IMG/VR virus record: IMGVR_UViG_2541047854_000008
Reading direction: 5' to 3' (one strand)
DNA: 13,548 bases
Origin: a virus
Lineage: Duplodnaviria; Heunggongvirae; Uroviricota; Caudoviricetes
The translations under genes and the position numbers were made by a program. The notes below the pieces were generated by a model that saw only the letters and a program-made list of their open reading frames with translations, did not search any database and had not been told where the DNA came from. This document shows, piece by piece, positions 1 to 10,456 of the stretch; positions within the stretch are counted from its first letter, which is position 1; each line of letters opens with the position of its first letter.

Positions 1-234
1 CACTGGCACGTGGAGAATAAGCTGCACTGGCGTCTGGACGTGGTAATGAATGAAGACGACTGCAAAATAAGAAGAGGAAATGCAGCAGAATTATTTTCAG
101 GGATACGGCACATCGCTATTAATATTTTGACTAATGATAAGGTATTCAAGGCAGGGTTAAGACGTAAGATGCAAAAAGCAGCCATGGAGAGAAACTATCT
201 GGCGTCAGTCCTTGCGGGGAACGGGCTTTCGTAA
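1..234 (+). mobile_element. 3'-terminal part of an IS transposase gene (ISAs1/H-repeat-like DDE transposase); the rest of the gene and IS lie upstream of the window
   Basis: Frame 1 is open from nt 1 ([43 protein letters not shown]...) to TAA at 232-234. The HWxxENxLHWxLDVxxxED..R..G motif is the conserved C-terminal signature of this transposase class (recalled, not searched). The IS terminal inverted repeat cannot be placed without the other end. Confidence 0.55.
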
Positions 235-567
235 TCTTGCCCTGCCTGCTCACCTCCTCCAGGCACTTCCACTACATGATGACCTGCTCGGTGCCACCGC
301 TCCTTTTCACTATGACGTTAACCTCCCCGTCCCAGGACACCATGCTTTTGTCTACATTCTACGCAAACGGCAACTTTTATAACCAGTGTAAAAATAACGT
401 GCCGCAATAGTCATACCTATTAATGGTAAAAAGCTGTCACAATTCATAAAAAACCTTAATATACGCCACCCTAAACATAACCAGCGTTAATGTAAGGTTT
501 TTGTGTGGACTGGCTTCTTGATGTTTTTGCTACCTGGCTCTACGGCTTAAAAGTAATCGCGATAACG

Positions 568-1173
568 TTAGCGGTCATCATGTTCATCAGCGGGCTGGAC
601 GATTTTTTTATTGATGTCGTCTACTGGGTACGCCGCATTAAACGCAAGTTGAGTGTTTATCGCCGCTATCAGTTCATCCAGCGCGGCTGCTTTGTTCATG
701 GCTTTGATGATATCCCGTTTCAGGAAATCAACATGTCGGTTTTCCAGTTCCGGAAAACGCCGCTGCACCGACAGGGGGATCCCGTCGAGAATACTGGCAA
801 TTTCACCTGCGATCCGCGACAGCACGAAAGTACAGAATGCGGTTTCCACCACTTCAGCGGAGTCTCTGGCATTTTTCAGCTCCTGTGCGTCGGCCTGCGC
901 ACGCGTAAGTCGATGGCGTTCGTACTCAATAGTCCCTGGCTGGAGATCTGTCTCGCTGGCCTGCCGCAGTTCTTCAACTTCCCGGCGCAGCTTTTCGTTC
1001 TCAATTTCAGCATCCCTTTCGGCATACCATCTTATAACGGCGGCAGAGTCATAAAGCACCTCATTACCCTTGCCACCGCCTCGCAGAACGGGCATTCCCT
1101 GTTCCTGCCAGTTCTGAATGGTACGGATACTCGCACCGAAAATGTCAGCCAGCTGCTTTTTGTTGACTTCCAT
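568..1173 (-). CDS. nohD: Terminase small subunit Nu1 homolog (DNA-packaging protein), C-terminally altered
   Basis: The 201-aa translation matches lambda Nu1 essentially residue for residue through aa 169 (MEVNKKQLADIFGASIRTIQNWQEQGMPVLRGGGKGNEVLYDSAAV...KAMNKAAALDELI), then continues with 32 unrelated residues to a TAA. ATG at 1171-1173 is preceded by GGAATGAACA, as in lambda. No large-subunit (A) gene follows. Confidence 0.9.
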   Translation of the reverse strand: MEVNKKQLADIFGASIRTIQNWQEQGMPVLRGGGKGNEVLYDSAAVIRWYAERDAEIENEKLRREVEELRQASETDLQPGTIEYERHRLTRAQADAQELKNARDSAEVVETAFCTFVLSRIAGEIASILDGIPLSVQRRFPELENRHVDFLKRDIIKAMNKAAALDELIAAINTQLAFNAAYPVDDINKKIVQPADEHDDR

Positions 1174-1400
1174 TGTTCATTCCACGGCCAAAAACAGAGA
1201 AAGGAAACGACAGAGGCCCAAAAGCTCGTTTTCAGCACCTGTCGTTTCCTTTCTTTTCAGGGGGTATTTTAAATAAAAACATTAAGTTACGACGAAGAAG
1301 AACGGAAATGCCTTAAACCGGAAAATTTTCATAAATAGCGAAAACCCGCGAGGTCGCCGCCCCGTAACCTGTCGGATCGCCGGAAAGGACCCGCAAAATG
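1174..1400 (-). other. cos site: cosN 12-nt cohesive-end sequence at 1351..1362 (AGGTCGCCGCCC on + strand, GGGCGGCGACCT on - strand), with cosB between cosN and the nohD start and cosQ-side sequence at 1363..~1400
   Basis: The - strand of 1260..1362 reads as the lambda left end (GGGCGGCGACCTCGCGGGTTTTCGCTATTTATGAAAATTTTCCGG...), and the - strand of 1363..1395 matches the lambda right end (...GGGTCCTTTCCGG[C]GATCCGACAGGTTACG). The cosN-to-Nu1 start spacing of about 178 bp is as in lambda. Confidence 0.8.
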
Positions 1401-1561
1401 ATAATAATTATCATCTACATGTCACAACGTGCATCTACGCCATCAAACCACGTCAAATAATCAATTATGACGCAGGTATCGTATTAATTGATCTGCATCA
1501 ACTTAACGTAAAAACAACTTCAGACAATACAAATCAGCGACACTGAATACGGGGCAACCTC

Positions 1562-1756
1562 ATGTCAACTAAGAACAGAACCCGCAGAACAACAACCCGC
1601 AACATCCGCTTTCCTAACCAAATGATTGAACAAATTAACATCGCTCTTGAGCAAAAAGGGTCTGGGAATTTCTCAGCCTGGGTCATTGAAGCCTGCCGTC
1701 GGAGACTAACGTCAGAAAAGAGAGCATATACATCAATCCAGAGTGATGATGAATAA
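1562..1756 (+). CDS. ylcI: DUF3950-family small prophage protein (YlcI-like, 64 aa), lambda right-end ORF
   Basis: ATG at 1562 to TAA at 1754-1756. The translation MSTKNRTRRTTTRNIRFPNQMIEQINIALEQKGSGNFSAWVIEACRRRLTSEKRAYTSI... matches the K-12 DLP12 YlcI sequence and the lambda right-end sequence as I remember them. Confidence 0.8.
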   Translation: MSTKNRTRRTTTRNIRFPNQMIEQINIALEQKGSGNFSAWVIEACRRRLTSEKRAYTSIQSDDE

Positions 1757-2115
1757 ACATCCCGGTTTCTTCCACCATCGCACCGGAAAAGCGACTATGA
1801 GGGTAACCCTGCGTCTGTCAGCACAGTAAAACCCGGTGTGCATCGTTTTTGATTATTCCCGCACACTCACGCAGAAGGAATTCCCCGTCGGGCTACGGTC
1901 ATGGTTAATGCGGGAATACGGCGACGATACAGCGCAGCTAAAAGGGTAATGGACAGAAAGAGCGGTTTATTTCATTCCACAGGATTCTGAGTGCCCCCCT
2001 CCTCCAATAGGCTGAGCATCCACCTATATAGTTTTAATTTTCATCAATCCATTTAACTATCGTTTAATTGTTGTCACATAGGATTCTGCCGTTTTTAACA
2101 ATGCAGGATAATAAG

Positions 2116-2409
2116 ATGAAAAAAATGTTGTTTTCTGCCGCTCTGGCAATGCTTATTACAGGATGTGCTCAACAGACGTTTACTGTTGGAAACAAACCGA
2201 CAGCAGTAACACCAAAGGAAACCATCACCCATCACTTCTTCGTTTCGGGAATTGGACAGGAGAAAACTGTTGATGCAGCCAAAATTTGTGGCGGCGCAGA
2301 AAATGTTGTTAAAACAGAAACCCAGCAAACATTCGTAAATGGATTGCTCGGTTTTATTACTTTAGGCATTTATACTCCGCTGGAAGCGCGTGTGTATTGC
2401 TCACAATAA
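2116..2409 (+). CDS. borD: Bor lipoprotein (serum-resistance lipoprotein homolog), 97 aa with lipobox LITGC
   Basis: The ORF track starts at a TTG (2068). The Bor-like protein begins at ATG 2116 (MKKMLFSAALAMLITGCAQQTFTV...), preceded by AGGA 8 nt upstream, with a signal peptide and lipobox cysteine. Near-identical to lambda Bor and convergent with Rz as in lambda. Confidence 0.9.
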   Translation: MKKMLFSAALAMLITGCAQQTFTVGNKPTAVTPKETITHHFFVSGIGQEKTVDAAKICGGAENVVKTETQQTFVNGLLGFITLGIYTPLEARVYCSQ

Positions 2410-2440
2410 TTGCATGAGTTGCCCATCGATATGGGCAGCT

Positions 2441-2902
2441 CTATCTGCACTGCTCATTAATATACTTCTGGGTTCCTTCCAGTTGTTTTTGCATAGTGAT
2501 CAGCCTCTCTCTGAGGGTGAAATAATCCCGTTCAGCGGTGTCTGCCAGTCGGGGGGAGGCTGCATTATCCACGCCGGAGGCGGTGGTGGCTTCACGCACT
2601 GACTGACAGACTGCTTTGATGTGCAACCGACGACGACCAGCGGCAACATCATCACGCAGAGCATCATTTTCAGCTTTCGCATTAGCTAACTCCTTCGTGT
2701 ATTTTTCATCCAGTGCAGCAACATCACGCTGGCGCATCTGCATGTCAGTAATTGCCGCGTTCGCCAGCTTCAGTTCTCTGGCATTTTTGTCGCGCTGGGC
2801 TTTGTAGGTAATGGCGTTATCACGGTAATGATTAACAGCCCATGACAGGCAGACGATGATGCAGATAACCAGAGCGGAGATAATCGCGGTTACTCTGTTC
2901 AT
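2441..2902 (-). CDS. rzpD: Rz inner-membrane spanin (i-spanin), 153 aa
   Basis: The translation from ATG 2900-2902 ([64 protein letters not shown]...) is near-identical to lambda Rz. The ATG overlaps the rrrD TGA (ATGA). The track's GTG start at 2914 is judged to be an upstream extension. Confidence 0.9.
2500..2682 (-). CDS. rzoD: Rz1 outer-membrane lipoprotein spanin (o-spanin), 60 aa, embedded in Rz in the +1 frame
   Basis: The translation [60 protein letters not shown] has a lipobox (VVGC) and proline-rich stretch and is near-identical to lambda Rz1. It lies wholly inside the Rz ORF. Confidence 0.85.
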
Positions 2903-3396
2903 TGCTGACCCCACAAACAGATTTCACGCTCAATCTCACGACGAGTCATGAGACCTTTCCATTGCTTACCGCCAGCATATGTCCAGCGACGTAGCTGATC
3001 ACATGCGCCTTTGATATCGCCCTGGTTTATTTTGCGAAGAAGCGTCGATGTTCTGAAATTGCCAGCGCCCACGTTGTAAACGAACGAGTAAAGAGCGCCG
3101 CGCGTTGTTTCCGGTATATCAACTTTTATGTACGGGTTAATTTGTCTGGCGACCGTGGCAAGGTCTTTATTCAGGAGGGCTTTGCATTCTGCTTTGGTAT
3201 ACGTTTTACCGAGCATGATGTCTTTTCCTGTATGCCCGTGACATACAGTCCATACACCAACAATATCTTTGTATGGTATGTAGCTGACACCTTCCAGACC
3301 ATCGTTACCACTTGGGCCAGTGATTAACACTGATGCTATAGCAATTGCTCCGCCACCAATAGCAGCAGCAACGGCTTTTCGTAATGATGGAGGCAT
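2899..3396 (-). CDS. rrrD: Phage lysozyme (endolysin, T4-lysozyme-like GH24) with N-terminal signal-anchor-release (SAR) segment, 165 aa
   Basis: The translation [75 protein letters not shown]... has a Gly/Ala-rich weakly hydrophobic N-terminus (SAR) followed by a lysozyme catalytic region, matching K-12 RrrD and phage-21 R-type endolysin. RBS GAGGTG upstream; the ATG overlaps the essD stop. Confidence 0.9.
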
Positions 3397-3611
3397 TATT
3401 CACCTCTCGCAGCCTTGCGCTTATCTTCTTTAATCTTGAAATAAAGGTTTGTCAGGTACGTCAGCAGGCCAAATACCAGGCTACCCAGCACACCTATTGC
3501 TGCCCACTGTGAGGGCGTGACTTTATCGAGCAGCTGTAAAAACCAGTAACCGGCACTACCTGCTGAGGTGCCATAGGCGACACCCGTTGTTAACTTATCC
3601 ATGGATTTCAT
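3396..3611 (-). CDS. essD: Phage 21 S-type pinholin with dual-start motif MKSM, 71 aa
   Basis: ATG at 3609-3611 is preceded by GAGGTGGGG. The protein [71 protein letters not shown] has two transmembrane segments and a charged C-terminus. Met1 and Met4 fit the holin/antiholin dual start. The track's TTG at 3656 is judged an extension. Confidence 0.85.
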
Positions 3612-3656
3612 AACCCCACCTCGCAGACAAAGCGGGTGTAAATTGAGGGAATACAA

Positions 3657-4199
3657 CGTATCGCAAAAAAGCAGAAACGTAACAGACTCGGAGTCAGTGA
3701 ATAACTCAGGTATTGAGTTATCAGCTAATATCGAGACTCAAAAAATGGAAAAACCAGCTCGACGGCGGGTTTAAGCTGTGTGACGAAGTAACCACTCTTA
3801 ACAGCATAACCAATTTTTTACGTACGTAAACCACTGAATGATATTTATGAGAATGCTACCGAGTGTTCAAAACACCACCACAAATATATAAGAAAACCTC
3901 AACAAATAACCAATAAATAATTTCCGGCGTTATTTTTAGTTGATTTAAATTAAACCACCGAATTATAGAACCCCCATAAATAACAGCCATTAATATAAAT
4001 TAGCTAATAGGTTTATTTTTGTTCAAATAAGAGCCATAAATAGGTTTCGATAGAAAAAGTTCAGATAAAAATAGAGATCTACTTCACAAATTAAATGAGA
4101 AACTAAAACTTACATCTTGAAATAATCACATTGATTAGATGAATATTTATCGCGCAGTGACATCATTTTTTAATAATAGTTCAAAAAAAAGGGCTCACG
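3657..4199 (+). promoter_or_regulatory. Long AT-rich upstream region of the porin gene, presumed nmpC promoter/regulatory region; exact promoter not assigned
   Basis: About 540 bp without a credible ORF, visibly AT-rich, directly upstream of the nmpC ATG. Contains the short direct repeat CCATAAATA at 3974-3982 and 4034-4042. Porin genes typically have extended upstream regulatory regions. Confidence 0.3.
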
Positions 4200-5282
4200 A
4201 TGAAAAAATTAACAGTGGCAATTTCTGCTGTAGCTGCATCAGTACTGATGGCGATGTCTGCTCAGGCAGCTGAAATTTATAATAAAGACAGTAACAAGCT
4301 GGATCTGTACGGGAAAGTTAATGCCAAGCACTACTTTTCCTCTAACGATGCAGATGATGGTGATACTACTTATGCCCGTCTTGGCTTCAAAGGTGAAACC
4401 CAAATCAACGATCAACTGACTGGTTTCGGTCAGTGGGAATATGAATTCAAAGGCAACCGCGCTGAATCTCAAGGTTCCTCCAAAGACAAAACCCGTCTTG
4501 CATTTGCAGGCCTGAAATTCGGTGACTACGGCTCAATCGATTACGGCCGTAACTACGGTGTAGCATACGACATCGGTGCGTGGACTGACGTTCTGCCAGA
4601 ATTCGGTGGCGATACCTGGACCCAAACAGATGTGTTCATGACTGGTCGCACCACTGGTGTTGCAACCTATCGTAACAACGACTTCTTTGGTCTGGTCGAT
4701 GGCCTGAACTTTGCTGCTCAGTATCAGGGTAAAAATGACCGCACTGACGTAACTGAAGCCAATGGTGATGGTTTCGGTTTCTCCACTACTTATGAGTATG
4801 AAGGATTCGGCGTGGGTGCAACCTATGCTAAATCAGATCGCACTGACGGTCAGGTCGCCTATGGTAAGAGCAAATTCAATGCCTCCGGCAAAAATGCGGA
4901 AGTATGGGCTGCAGGCCTGAAATATGATGCGAACAATATCTATCTGGCTACCACATATTCTGAAACTCAGAATATGACCGTTTTTGGTAATAACCATATT
5001 GCAAACAAAGCACAAAACTTTGAAGCAGTAGCACAATATCAGTTTGACTTCGGTCTGCGACCATCTGTTGCTTACCTTCAGTCAAAAGGTAAAGACCTTG
5101 GTGTTCATGGTGACCGAGACTTAGTCAAGTATGTCGATGTCGGTGCTACTTACTACTTTAATAAAAACATGTCCACTTTTGTTGATTACAAAATCAACTT
5201 AATTGACGATAGTAAGTTTACCAAAACAGCTGGTATTGATACCGACGACATCGTCGCTGTAGGTCTGGTGTATCAGTTCTAA
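4200..5282 (+). CDS. nmpC: Outer-membrane general porin of the OmpC/OmpF/PhoE family (NmpC/OmpD-like), 360 aa, intact
   Basis: Signal peptide [23 protein letters not shown] followed by AEIYNKD..., and it ends in the porin C-terminal motif ...VGLVYQF. Full length with no interruption. Oriented opposite to the flanking late genes. Confidence 0.9.
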
Positions 5283-7537: not shown

Positions 7538-8320
7538 TTAGGCGCAATACAAAGGATCATTAGCAGCTCTAATACCGCCCTGAATCGCAAGCCCTGTATG
7601 GCAATTTGACATTGAGCATGATTGCCATCTGTGCAAGGGACCTCCATTAATCGAAACTTCCAGCAGATCTTTATCTCCTTTCATCCTGACCCCTTCATAC
7701 AACATATCAAGACGCTCAACAATCAATCCTGTTGGAGGTTCCATTTTTAGAACGAGGGCAAACTCTCCTGGCCCACGTCGTATTGTTATACGCGGGCCGG
7801 TACACTCCACATCCCAATTGTCTGATTTAGCTTTCCATTCATTTTCATCTATCAGTAAAGTCTCCTTACCAATAGAATTACAGAAAATTCCTGATAAAAG
7901 CATCGGTCCATGTGGTATGGGTGAAGGTTTCACAGAAAGAATGGGTTGTTCGTTGACTACAATCAAATTTTGACAGTTATGAAACGTCACTCCTGCAAAT
8001 TTTACTGTTATAGGCTCATTATGAAAATCAAACATTTCATTTGCAAAACCAGCCTGTAAGCACTTGGGATTTCTGTCAGCTATTTCCACTGTCTGTGCTG
8101 AAAGTCTACCACGAGCTCTTTTTTGATTGCATTGGGAGCAAAGAAGTGTCATTCCATTCGGATCATGTATTTTGGCATCAACGAAGTCAGGTTTAAAATG
8201 CTCATAATCATAAAATCCAAATCCACAAATTACACAGCCAAAGCCGCACCTTTGCCTTATCTGACGTTTTATTGTCTCAGGTATTCTTCTTGAGAGCCCG
8301 TGTTTATTAATATTGTCCAT
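7538..8320 (-). CDS. Hypothetical 260-aa protein with an N-terminal zinc-finger HNH (beta-beta-alpha-Me) nuclease motif and an uncharacterised ~190-aa C-terminal domain
   Basis: ATG at 8318-8320 with an in-frame stop 5 codons upstream and only a weak SD. Residues 25-65 read RCGFGCVICGFGFYDYEHFKPDFVDAKIHDPNGMTLLCSQCNQ, i.e. C-x3-C-x2-C ... EH ... N ... C-x2-C-N, the spacing typical of HNH nucleases. The C-terminal region is not recognised. The gene is AT-rich relative to the lambda-like core. Confidence 0.6.
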   Translation of the reverse strand: MDNINKHGLSRRIPETIKRQIRQRCGFGCVICGFGFYDYEHFKPDFVDAKIHDPNGMTLLCSQCNQKRARGRLSAQTVEIADRNPKCLQAGFANEMFDFHNEPITVKFAGVTFHNCQNLIVVNEQPILSVKPSPIPHGPMLLSGIFCNSIGKETLLIDENEWKAKSDNWDVECTGPRITIRRGPGEFALVLKMEPPTGLIVERLDMLYEGVRMKGDKDLLEVSINGGPLHRWQSCSMSNCHTGLAIQGGIRAANDPLYCA

Positions 8321-8450
8321 ATGGTTAGTACGCTATAAGTTTGTTTCTATAATTTTACCACAATAGATAAGTTTGTATCAGAAATCGCTATATGGAGTGA
8401 GCGGAATATTTATATTATTCATGCAATTGCTCTCCCGTACGCAGCCCGCA

Positions 8451-8476
8451 CTTCCGTCATCGCAGAATGACGGAAG
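8451..8476 (-). promoter_or_regulatory. Perfect 10-bp inverted repeat (CTTCCGTCAT-cgcaga-ATGACGGAAG) in the intergenic region between the 107-aa and 260-aa genes; candidate operator or attenuator hairpin
   Basis: Read directly from the sequence. It lies 19 nt past the stop of the 107-aa ORF and upstream of an AT-rich stretch that contains an extended -10-like TGGTAAAAT (- strand, about 8350-8360). No U-tract follows on either strand. Confidence 0.3.
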
Positions 8477-8494
8477 CCTTACTAACTAGCGCCT

Positions 8495-8818
8495 TTATTG
8501 AAACAGATTCTGAGGTAAATGCGGCAATACTTGACTCCACTTATCATCCTGCCACGGCTGAAGTTTTACATGTGCCGTTTCTCGGGCGAGGATTGCTCGC
8601 GCTCTGTTGAGTCTCTGGGGATATTCTTGCTCGATGGAAGTGAAGTGACCAGCCTCACCATGCTCCGCATCCTGAAGAAGATGAGTAACGTTCTGGTAGG
8701 CAATTAACATCACATTCCCTGCTCGCCATAACCAGGCGAGTGTGCAAAGTTCGTTATCAGTGAATTGTTTTGTGATTGGGAATTGTTGAACTGCTAGAAC
8801 GGGAACGCCAGCATCCAT
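8495..8818 (-). CDS. Hypothetical protein, 107 aa, no recognised family; upstream partner of the HNH-motif gene
   Basis: ATG at 8816-8818 with an in-frame TAG 3 codons upstream and AGGGA 8 nt upstream. Translation MDAGVPVLAVQQFPITKQFTDNELCTLAWLWRAGNVMLIAYQNVTHLLQDAEHGEAGHFTSIEQEYPQRLNRARAILARETAHVKLQPWQDDKWSQVLPHLPQNLFQ. Coding status rests on ORF length and position only. Confidence 0.45.
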   Translation of the reverse strand: MDAGVPVLAVQQFPITKQFTDNELCTLAWLWRAGNVMLIAYQNVTHLLQDAEHGEAGHFTSIEQEYPQRLNRARAILARETAHVKLQPWQDDKWSQVLPHLPQNLFQ

Positions 8819-8929: not shown

Positions 8930-10456
8930 TCAAAAATAAACCTCACCATCAACCATATATTTGAGAGTACTTATCGCCTGCTGGGCGGATATTGTTTTCA
9001 TTAAAGGATAGTGTTTAAAAACAATGCCATTCATAAAATAGATATCACAGGTTTTATTATCTGTATTGATTATGATTTTTTCGAATGTTTTATAGGCAAG
9101 TGTACGACATAGCTCTCGCCCATTTTTACTGGTTAAGTCAATAGCATGAAAATCACCAAGTGAACTCACCGCTTTACTCTTCAAAGTTTTTAATGATACC
9201 GAAGCCCTTCGTAATTCTTTATCTAATACTCTGATTTTTTCTGCTATAGCGGTAACTTCAGGCGCAACAGATAATGCAGCAATTAAATTATTAATTTTCA
9301 TCTGGAGCTCAATAATTTTCAACTCTAAAGTTTCATTAGCATCTTTCTTGTTTTCAACTGGTTGGATTTTACTACAATTAAAAAGCAACTCATTAATGAT
9401 ATTATAATCAACCAAATCTCTCTTTATTGATGGCCTGTCACATCGATGCAGTCTTCTCATCGGACAAACATAATAGCCATGCAAACTTCCAGATACCGCA
9501 TGAACAATCATGGTATTACCACAAGCCTCGCACTTCATAACTGTTCGAAGTAGATTTATCAACATAGGATTTTTGCTACTATTGCTAATACCAAAAGGTG
9601 CCAACCGAATTTCCTGCACAGCGTAAAACAAATCATCTGATATGACTCTGGGATAATAGCCAGCGATTTCACTTATTCCTTTACCTCTTGCACGATATGA
9701 AGGTACGCATATACCTATCAGAGCTTTATTCGCTAATAATTTTTCAATTACAGAAGGCCCCCATGCACTTTCTTTGCCTGAGAAATTTTTTACAGCATGA
9801 TCATTTAAATACTTGGCTATTGCATTCAATGATCGCCTTTCCATCCTGAGTTTAAAAATTAGCTCAATCGTTTTCACCCTGTCGGGGTCTGGAATAAAAG
9901 CTGTTCTTTTGTCATCCAATGAGAGCCATCTCGGACAAGACGCCGTCATAATCGTGCCTGACTCCAGTGCATCCTGCCGTTTTTTCTTCCATGATAATTT
10001 AACCCGACTTGACTTTATCTCGCTTTCTTCATTTGCCCTTTGTGCTATAAGTATGGCTTTTATTAATGAATATGGATCATTCAAAGAGTCAATATTATAG
10101 ACTGTATTATCGCAAAGAGTTATAACATCAATACCGTGATTCAAAATCAATTTCAGACGCTCAATCGCTTCACCGACTTTTTCTCTTGAAAGTCTGTCCA
10201 AACTTTCAACTAACAATGTAGTTCCTGGCAATATATAACCATGCTCTATAGCATCTAAAAATTCCGAAAAAGCTCCTGATTGTGCATGCTTTCCTTTGAA
10301 TGCACTTAATCCTAAATCTTCATATGTTATGGTATCAAGATAATAATCACTATTTACCTTTAACCATTCAGCAATAAGTCTTCTCTGTCGGTTCAATGAG
10401 TCGCCAGACATCTGACCTGGTGATGAAAATCGCATATATGCTATGGCTTTTTTCAT
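8930..10456 (-). CDS. ybcK: Large serine recombinase (resolvase/invertase-type N-terminal catalytic domain plus recombinase and zinc-ribbon domains), 508 aa
   Basis: ATG at 10454-10456. The N-terminus MKKAIAYMRFSSPGQMSGDSLNRQRRLIAEW... carries the serine-recombinase catalytic motif (YxRxSS). The C-terminal part has a Cys cluster (CEACGN...CPMRRLHRC) and a coiled-coil-like segment. Matches K-12 YbcK in length and sequence as recalled. AT-rich. Confidence 0.9.
   Translation of the reverse strand: MKKAIAYMRFSSPGQMSGDSLNRQRRLIAEWLKVNSDYYLDTITYEDLGLSAFKGKHAQSGAFSEFLDAIEHGYILPGTTLLVESLDRLSREKVGEAIERLKLILNHGIDVITLCDNTVYNIDSLNDPYSLIKAILIAQRANEESEIKSSRVKLSWKKKRQDALESGTIMTASCPRWLSLDDKRTAFIPDPDRVKTIELIFKLRMERRSLNAIAKYLNDHAVKNFSGKESAWGPSVIEKLLANKALIGICVPSYRARGKGISEIAGYYPRVISDDLFYAVQEIRLAPFGISNSSKNPMLINLLRTVMKCEACGNTMIVHAVSGSLHGYYVCPMRRLHRCDRPSIKRDLVDYNIINELLFNCSKIQPVENKKDANETLELKIIELQMKINNLIAALSVAPEVTAIAEKIRVLDKELRRASVSLKTLKSKAVSSLGDFHAIDLTSKNGRELCRTLAYKTFEKIIINTDNKTCDIYFMNGIVFKHYPLMKTISAQQAISTLKYMVDGEVYF

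Follow-up and report, generated by a model that had tools for sequence, protein, structure and literature searches.

Late end of a DLP12-type prophage in Escherichia coli: the nohD-nfrB deletion joint and the recurrent breakpoint in Nu1

The cryptic prophage DLP12 of Escherichia coli K-12 lies at argU, and its late end consists of full-length nohD, the homologue of lambda Nu1, and 309 bp of gene A fused to tfaD, followed by appY, ompT, envY, ybcH, nfrA and nfrB. Here we analyzed a stretch of 13,548 nucleotides (the window; IMG/VR record IMGVR_UViG_2541047854_000008), which is E. coli chromosome in reversed orientation relative to the K-12 map and carries a DLP12-type cryptic lambdoid prophage at argU. 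It shares with K-12 DLP12 the argU site, the gene order, and intD, ybcK, ybcN-rusA-quuD, essD-rrrD-rzpD-borD, cos and nohD at 91-99.8% identity, but lacks everything between nohD codon 169 and nfrB codon 54. A first reading of the window from its letters alone (the sequence-only reading) had recognized that its late end is unlike that of K-12 DLP12, where the order is nohD-aaaD-tfaD. That reading attributed the difference to a deletion associated with an insertion sequence (IS).

Two other groups have lost the same chromosomal genes. In E. coli B (BL21(DE3) and REL606), as in the window, appY-ompT-envY-ybcH-nfrA-nfrB were lost naturally by an IS-free deletion from the late end of DLP12 with a joint on a shared TA, and nohD is truncated within one codon of the window's break (codon 170, fused to J). 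However, the ompT-removing deletion of BL21 runs from the side-tail-fibre gene (stf) to a point upstream of vgrG and also removed the ISAs1 element and the Rhs island, while the nohD-J truncation is a separate, older event common to the ompT+ strain AS19. The second group is a sister lineage (TUM17668, QML220614 and PK8276), whose DLP12-type prophages are 100% identical to the window from position 669 onward (0 mismatches over 669-4100); vgrG allele and Rhs truncation are likewise the same. It has also lost ompT, envY, ybcH and nfrAB, but it has IS1A at the joint: intact nohD and 876 bp of gene A are followed by IS1A and a Rhs fragment, and ISAs1 is removed. Parallel losses of these genes thus came about in different ways, namely through the joint in the window, the IS1A-linked deletion of the sister lineage and a third deletion in BL21.

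The nohD-nfrB joint and the neighbouring ISAs1 element

When the window was aligned three ways, against an intact nfrB and an intact nohD, a clean switch appeared at 667/668, where both parents share the dinucleotide TA and there is neither filler nor IS sequence; with imperfect matches included, the shared bases are CCGnTA (5/6). Identity to nohD is exact from position 667 and identity to the nfrB parent is exact until 668. Similarity to K-12 nohD and to lambda-like phages begins at 663-669, with BLAST reaching 663 over one mismatch, which agrees with the first estimate that lambda identity stops near nt 666. Window positions 1..1300 were found with 100% identity in four independently assembled complete genomes (FORC_082, NCCP12480, B-JRPT-4119 and O15_8X), so the joint is genuine rather than a product of assembly. 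These four are the only carriers among 5,426 complete E. coli genomes.

The late end of this prophage was therefore very probably removed by one simple, IS-independent deletion, which by the alignments would run from nohD nt 507 (codon 169) to nfrB nt 164 (codon 54). A single deletion with its ends after these two nucleotides would have joined two convergent genes, and reading on past the joint from either remnant leads onto the antisense strand of its neighbour. The two genes lie on opposite strands in K-12 (nohD +, nfrB -), from which a plain deletion yields the convergent arrangement seen. The flanks are colinear and co-oriented with the undeleted layout, there is no filler and the shared bases are few, as in a simple microhomology deletion. 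Because the joint shares only TA and holds no filler, illegitimate recombination by break-and-rejoin or template switch would be the process, rather than transposition or homologous recombination.

The deletion would have taken the 3' end of nohD, the remaining late genes, appY, ompT, envY, ybcH, nfrA and nfrB beyond codon 54. Against the K-12 layout it amounts to 11,676 bp (derived from K-12 coordinates) and comprises the nohD 3' end, aaaD, tfaD, ybcY, tfaX, appY, ompT, envY, ybcH, nfrA and nfrB from codon 55. Against layouts of the enterotoxigenic E. coli (ETEC) type it is 13.2-14.0 kb, and against the AS19/B-type layout 16.6 kb. The sequence-only reading held that a deletion had removed the packaging and structural genes. 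A deletion is indeed the cause and the late end is cut, but its far end lies about 9 kb past the prophage, inside chromosomal nfrB, and all undeleted layouts sampled had already lost most structural genes.

Some points weigh against so simple a history. The immediate ancestor is absent from the collection and the nearest relatives carry their own IS1A-linked deletion, which leaves only a bracket for the length deleted and for the phage genes lost; what the ancestor held between nohD and appY we infer from this bracket. A history in two steps, with an earlier deletion at the same nohD site and then a second one, is possible, and a microhomology of 2 bp does not separate end joining from template switching. 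Derivation from the nohD-J joint of E. coli B, only 2-4 nt away, is unlikely, as the nearest relatives have intact nohD (0 mismatches in 3.4 kb, versus 6 for the B type).

The DNA on the nfrB side of the joint had been described as fused sequence unrelated to lambda (235..670). It is true that none of the top-ranked phage records listed matches 235..662. The segment derives from ordinary chromosome: first the tail of a vgrG/Rhs island, then the DNA between cusS and nfrB, and last nfrB codons 1-54. Genomes that have intact nfrB right after the same ISAs1 element (ATCC 8739, strain C, AS19 and others) are colinear with window 1..668 at 100% identity, and we rejected a phage or other foreign source for 235..668. 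The order in ATCC 8739 is cusS - vgrG - DcrB-like - Rhs - two small open reading frames (ORFs) - ISAs1 - nfrB - nfrA - ybcH - envY - tRNA-Arg. K-12 is without this vgrG/Rhs/ISAs1 island, and its similarity to the window begins at 363, in the cusS-nfrB intergenic region; with window 150-668 as query, the island-free genomes match from query position 214, which is window 363. The translation of 505..668 matches NfrB residues 1-54.

The first reading was right that the first letters of the window belong to the 3' end of an ISAs1/H-repeat-type transposase gene pointing toward the junction. In FORC_082, an identical genome, the IS is complete and its 378-aa ISAs1 transposase ends where the gene in the window ends; the full protein has the Pfam domains DDE_Tnp_1_assoc and DDE_Tnp_1 (E-values 4e-32 and 2e-30). 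The IS is 1,291 bp long, has 97-98% identity to the K-12 H-repeat copies yhhI and ydcC over 1,291-1,292 bp, and ends at window 244. Its terminal inverted repeats are imperfect (right end, reverse complement, CAGGGCAAGAT... against left end CAGG(G/A)AAAGAT...; ends CAGGG.AAGAT). No direct repeat that could be a target-site duplication is evident in the 20 bp on each side of the IS, of which the left flank lies outside the window.

An adjacent deletion mediated by ISAs1, or by another IS since lost, would have its end at an IS terminus. In its favour, the ISAs1 transposase gene is 430 bp from the joint and points to it, and IS-linked deletions do exist at this locus: TUM17668, QML220614 and PK8276 have IS1A exactly between the gene A fragment and the Rhs fragment. 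But the IS terminus at nt 244 and the joint at 667/668 are separated by 423 bp of normal chromosome, and the joint has no IS sequence or scar. Moreover, window 150-668, from the IS end through the nfrB start, is found unbroken in 2,534 of the 5,426 complete E. coli genomes, O157:H7 included; nfrB is intact in those inspected, and IS and spacer are arranged identically in these 2,534 genomes with undeleted nfrB. We regard this explanation as very improbable. The IS neither adjoins the joint nor explains the deletion, since the complete element occupies the same position beside intact nfrB in thousands of genomes, and the flank that follows it is ordinary DNA, chromosomal and not prophage. In essence this is the result by which the sequence-only reading would have counted itself refuted, except that it had named prophage sequence for the flank. 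ISAs1 is a bystander, older and conserved, that closes the neighbouring Rhs island, and the sister-lineage deletion is the kind of event that had been proposed, but not the one in the window.

On the prophage side, residues 1-169 of the ORF at the joint (...KAAALDELI) match K-12 NohD and lambda Nu1, and residues 170-201 are nfrB antisense and unrelated to lambda, so both the truncation of Nu1 at codon 169 and the foreign nature of the 32 C-terminal codons had been read correctly. Pfam Phage_Nu1 (PF07471) covers residues 1-164 of the 201-aa product over the whole profile (1-164 of 164, E-value 3e-101), and the window nohD has 98-99.6% identity to the Nu1 genes of lambda-like phages. The complete Nu1 C-terminus (residues 170-181) is not retained, and the window contains no gene A partner. 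The chimeric ORF is annotated in FORC_082 as 'terminase small subunit' WP_000453608.1.

Recurrence of the breakpoint at Nu1 nt 504-511

We searched proteins with the fusion ORF of the window, located the break from Nu1 in codons 135-181 only, where detection is even, and counted distinct tails. About 8 variants break at codons 135-167, 38 at 168-170 and about 8 at 171-181; that is, at least 38 of about 54 distinct Nu1 fusion variants fall at codons 168-170 (binomial p about 5e-31, 3 of 41 codons). The B-type fusion of nohD to J after codon 170 is 2-4 nt from the break in the window. The partners mapping to lambda all share one strand and spread from nt 751 to 22,390, over genes A, B, C, E, FI, FII, Z/U, V, K, I, J, lom, stf and tfa. 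The partners outside lambda are a P4-like integrase gene, a major facilitator superfamily (MFS) transporter gene and, in the window, nfrB. The neighbours of the MFS gene are a mannitol-dehydrogenase-like gene, ydfZ, GntR-type and short-chain-dehydrogenase genes and a peptidase M3 gene; we take it to be ydfJ, which flanks the Qin prophage in K-12. Both DLP12-type prophages and prophages that we read as Qin-type carry such fusions.

Complete genomes supported this independently. In 327 of 4,062 matching complete genomes no copy covered at least 80% of a query spanning the breakpoint site, four of five truncated copies sampled from complete genomes end at nohD nt 507-512, and ETEC1717 carries a Nu1 pseudogene of exactly 507 nt, annotated by the Prokaryotic Genome Annotation Pipeline (PGAP) and fused to a portal gene.

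The joints themselves tend to share TA. With lambda as proxy for the partner sequence, as in many of the joints, TA is common to both parents in 12 of the 18 joints at codon 169 (p about 5e-11), and others share A, ATA or GATA. The B-type nohD-J joint shares TACC, and some events at the breakpoint are without TA, for example in ETEC1717. Most of the other IS-free deletion joints reconstructed at this locus are similar: K-12 aaaD-tfaD shares TAT, BL21 J-J and BL21 stf-vgrG-upstream share TA, AS19 vgrG-Rhs shares TAC and FORC_082 Rhs-Rhs shares TA. For the ETEC A'-stf joint at ...GACTA/TAACTG a shared TA is only presumed, the partner sequence not having been reconstructed, and the joint of TUM17668 has a 9-bp repeat instead of TA. 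Counting the presumed ETEC joint, six of seven IS-free joints are on TA (p about 4e-7), and five of six without it.

It is rather probable, in our judgement, that the nohD end of the deletion was not random, and that the break arose at Nu1 nt 504-511 from a site-specific lesion or a site prone to recombination (possibly a nick, a point of arrest or the target of an enzyme) and was then joined to a TA site in nfrB. This would refine, not replace, the simple deletion. The three-codon peak, the wide spread of partners, the breaks of E. coli B and BL21 at codon 170, the truncated copies at nt 507-512 and the TA in the joints all argue for it. On the other side, selection could sharpen the pattern, since the TA of the breakpoint is the last TA before the ribosome-binding site of gene A; selection cannot easily explain the three-codon peak or the TA signature. 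The use of lambda as proxy for many partners and the events without TA, such as ETEC1717, also count against a special site.

In addition, none of the candidate causes looked for at the breakpoint (hairpin, canonical Chi, inserted gene) was found. There is no hairpin or cruciform at the breakpoint (folding z-scores -0.3 to +1.1), and the nearest inverted repeat, lambda 722-731 with 770-779, is over 20 bp downstream. The window has no canonical Chi (GCTGGTGG), the nearest octamer beside the breakpoint being GCTGGATG with 2 mismatches (6/8); Chi-dependent end protection, which would require a correctly oriented Chi a few nt 5' of the fixed end, is not supported. The listed phage records, each matching as a single piece, have no gene inserted between Nu1 and A, either a homing endonuclease or another, and 88 of 89 matching phage records cover at least 80% of the query. 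No second copy of the breakpoint motif, for example beside ybcK, occurs in the window. Self-targeting by type I-E CRISPR (clustered regularly interspaced short palindromic repeats) was set aside by reasoning only, as no suitable protospacer-adjacent motif was seen by eye in the needed orientation. In the searchable literature we found no described deletion hotspot in Nu1/nohD and no TA-specific deletion process.

A site-specific recombinase with a 2-bp TA crossover at pseudo-sites is another explanation, the candidates being YbcK, a large serine recombinase encoded in the prophage at window 8930..10456, or an invertase of the Pin type. Crossovers are confined to the shared TA, the base left of it always coming from the left parent and the base right of it from the right parent; a hand tally gave a weak flanking preference, G-N-TA-N-C/CGG, and the YbcK gene lies in the same prophage. 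But a palindromic TA core should allow inversions, and there is none among about 45 mapped events, all mapped partners being on the same strand, which argues against a recombinase with such a symmetric core. By eye there is no dyad symmetry around the Nu1 site, and several events at the breakpoint are without TA. We know of no site for YbcK, and consider this explanation improbable.

The pattern is in keeping with a break or an arrest at one fixed position, followed by loss to one side only and joining over 0-4 nt of identity. Hotspots of deletion in which one end is fixed are known from Int-promoted lambda deletions at att, from the origin nick in M13/pC194 and from the fork arrested at Tus/Ter. 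Like the Nu1 events, these have one end fixed to a few nt and the other variable with very short similarity, and they give deletions only; they differ in that none of their defining features could be shown at Nu1 nt 504-511. To our knowledge no enzyme, nick site or arrest site has been described there. We tentatively propose, as a possibility somewhat short of even, that Nu1 nt 504-511 (CTGATA/CCGGGG, just upstream of the gene A ribosome-binding site) is a true mutational hotspot for one-directional loss of late genes through a site-specific lesion or enzyme favouring shared TA, and that the same TA-joining may also have produced further IS-free deletions here, among them the one by which E. 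coli B lost ompT/nfrAB.

Two further observations were made on these breaks. A minor cluster of three events lies at Nu1 nt 432/433, and both it and the main cluster are 3 nt after GAACTG, a motif which occurs five times in lambda nu1 and which we read as a Glu-Leu codon pair. In the integrase fusion (L015 6001-8000), Nu1 runs to codon 169 and then into the C-terminal part of the P4-like integrase gene; an AlpA gene and a gene with a TIR domain (CAP12-like) come next. This suggests that a small defence island stood in the late region before the deletion. From its csp-type gene neighbours we take this prophage to be Qin-like.

Layout of the window and predicted consequences for the N4 receptor pathway and OmpT

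The coordinates are collected in Table 1. After cosN the prophage continues with ylcI, bor/iss, rzpD, rrrD, essD, a porin gene, quuD, rusA, ybcO, ninE, ybcN, ybcK, ren, P and intD, and the far end of the window is the int stop codon. Compared with K-12 DLP12, the window is without IS5 in nmpC (the porin gene nmpC/ompC-like is intact), without IS3 in renD and without ybcV/ybcW, and ybcL/ybcM are replaced by a hypothetical gene and a gene with a P22AR C-terminal domain. The four genomes that carry the joint match the whole window in two to three pieces each (95-100% coverage), none of them colinear in one piece, so the window comes from a related, non-identical arrangement. Extra insertions were seen in these genomes, for example inside ybcK in FORC_082.

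Table 1. Features of the window and of the loci compared with it. Positions are those of the window unless a locus (L) is given.
Feature	Position	Strand	Basis
ISAs1-family (ISEc1 / H-repeat) transposase gene, 3' end; stop codon 232-234	1..234	+	ORF list (ORF part 10..234), FORC_082 annotation, Pfam
Right terminal inverted repeat and end of the IS, CGTAATCTTGCCCTG	230..244	+	Comparison with K-12 yhhI and ydcC
Tail of vgrG/Rhs island, absent from K-12, present in island-bearing genomes	245..362		K-12 similarity begins only at 363
Native cusS-nfrB intergenic region (upstream region of nfrB)	363..504	+	100% identity to K-12
nfrB codons 1-54, GTG start	505..668	+	100% identical to ATCC 8739, strain C, AS19 and K-12 nfrB until nt 668
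Deletion joint, TA in both parents (nohD nt 506-507, nfrB nt 163-164)	667..668		Three-way alignment
nohD (lambda Nu1 homologue) codons 1-169, without the last 12 codons	667..1173	-	Alignment, Pfam Phage_Nu1
Chimeric ORF, 201 aa: NohD 1-169 and 32 codons from nfrB antisense strand	568..1173	-	ORF list
Intact cosN cohesive-end sequence GGGCGGCGACCT, upstream of nohD	1351..1362	-	Exact match; 0 in 200 shuffles
Main breakpoint (nohD nt 504-511)	660-675; loci L004, L012, L014, L015, L016, L017		
Sites differing from K-12 DLP12	4200-5282, 7538-8818, 11324, 1773-2062		
Gene A fragment - IS1A - Rhs fragment of the sister lineage	L005 18358-19985; L006 33928-35555; L007 46017-47643		
Other joints	L003 18660-18665; L012 1185 and 3502; L004 17050; L001 4634; L008 about 14920		

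Between the transposase gene and the nfrB-derived ORF there are 270 bp of non-coding DNA. On the + strand a 255-aa ORF (window 505-1272) begins with NfrB residues 1-54 and continues antisense through all of nohD; it has no Pfam match. If the nfrB promoter is still active, antisense transcription would run across nohD toward cos. Between cos and ylcI, at about 1395-1417, there is an AT-rich stretch resembling GATAAT, gataataattatcatc. In K-12, strong Fur-site clusters have been reported upstream of nohA and nohB (PMC2189734), near cos and away from the Nu1 breakpoint.

NfrB, NfrA and YbcH make and export a glycan which phage N4 uses as receptor (PMC8669469, PMC8669472). NfrB is a glycosyltransferase activated by cyclic di-GMP (c-di-GMP); in the intact protein the GT2 catalytic domain is at residues about 70-382 and the MshEN domain, which binds c-di-GMP, at about 542-628; NfrB needs both, and the 54-codon remnant has neither. 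Carriers of the joint should make no Nfr exopolysaccharide and hence would be resistant to N4-type phages. OmpT, EnvY and AppY should be absent as well, leaving them without the OmpT protease. An nfrB pseudogene with an internal stop is annotated in AS19 and in two ETEC-type genomes (L004 20505-22742; L008 1750-3987; L009 1754-3991), and from these annotations such stops appear to be another independent route to inactivation of the N4-receptor pathway.

As a single event the deletion is ordinary and strain-level. It means a natural knockout of the nfrBA-ybcH pathway for the N4 receptor and of the OmpT protease, and this loss from nohD to nfrB is independent of the E. coli B deletion and of the IS1-linked deletion in the sister lineage. 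Together with the internal stops in nfrB, the parallel deletions suggest that this surface system has repeatedly been selected against or has repeatedly been lost. The part of larger significance is the recurrent breakpoint in Nu1, not the single deletion. Should the hotspot prove genuine, one main way in which prophages decay would be partly deterministic and experimentally tractable, many odd 'terminase small subunit' fusion annotations in E. coli genomes would be explained, and there would be a defined sequence for studying how prophages are disarmed.

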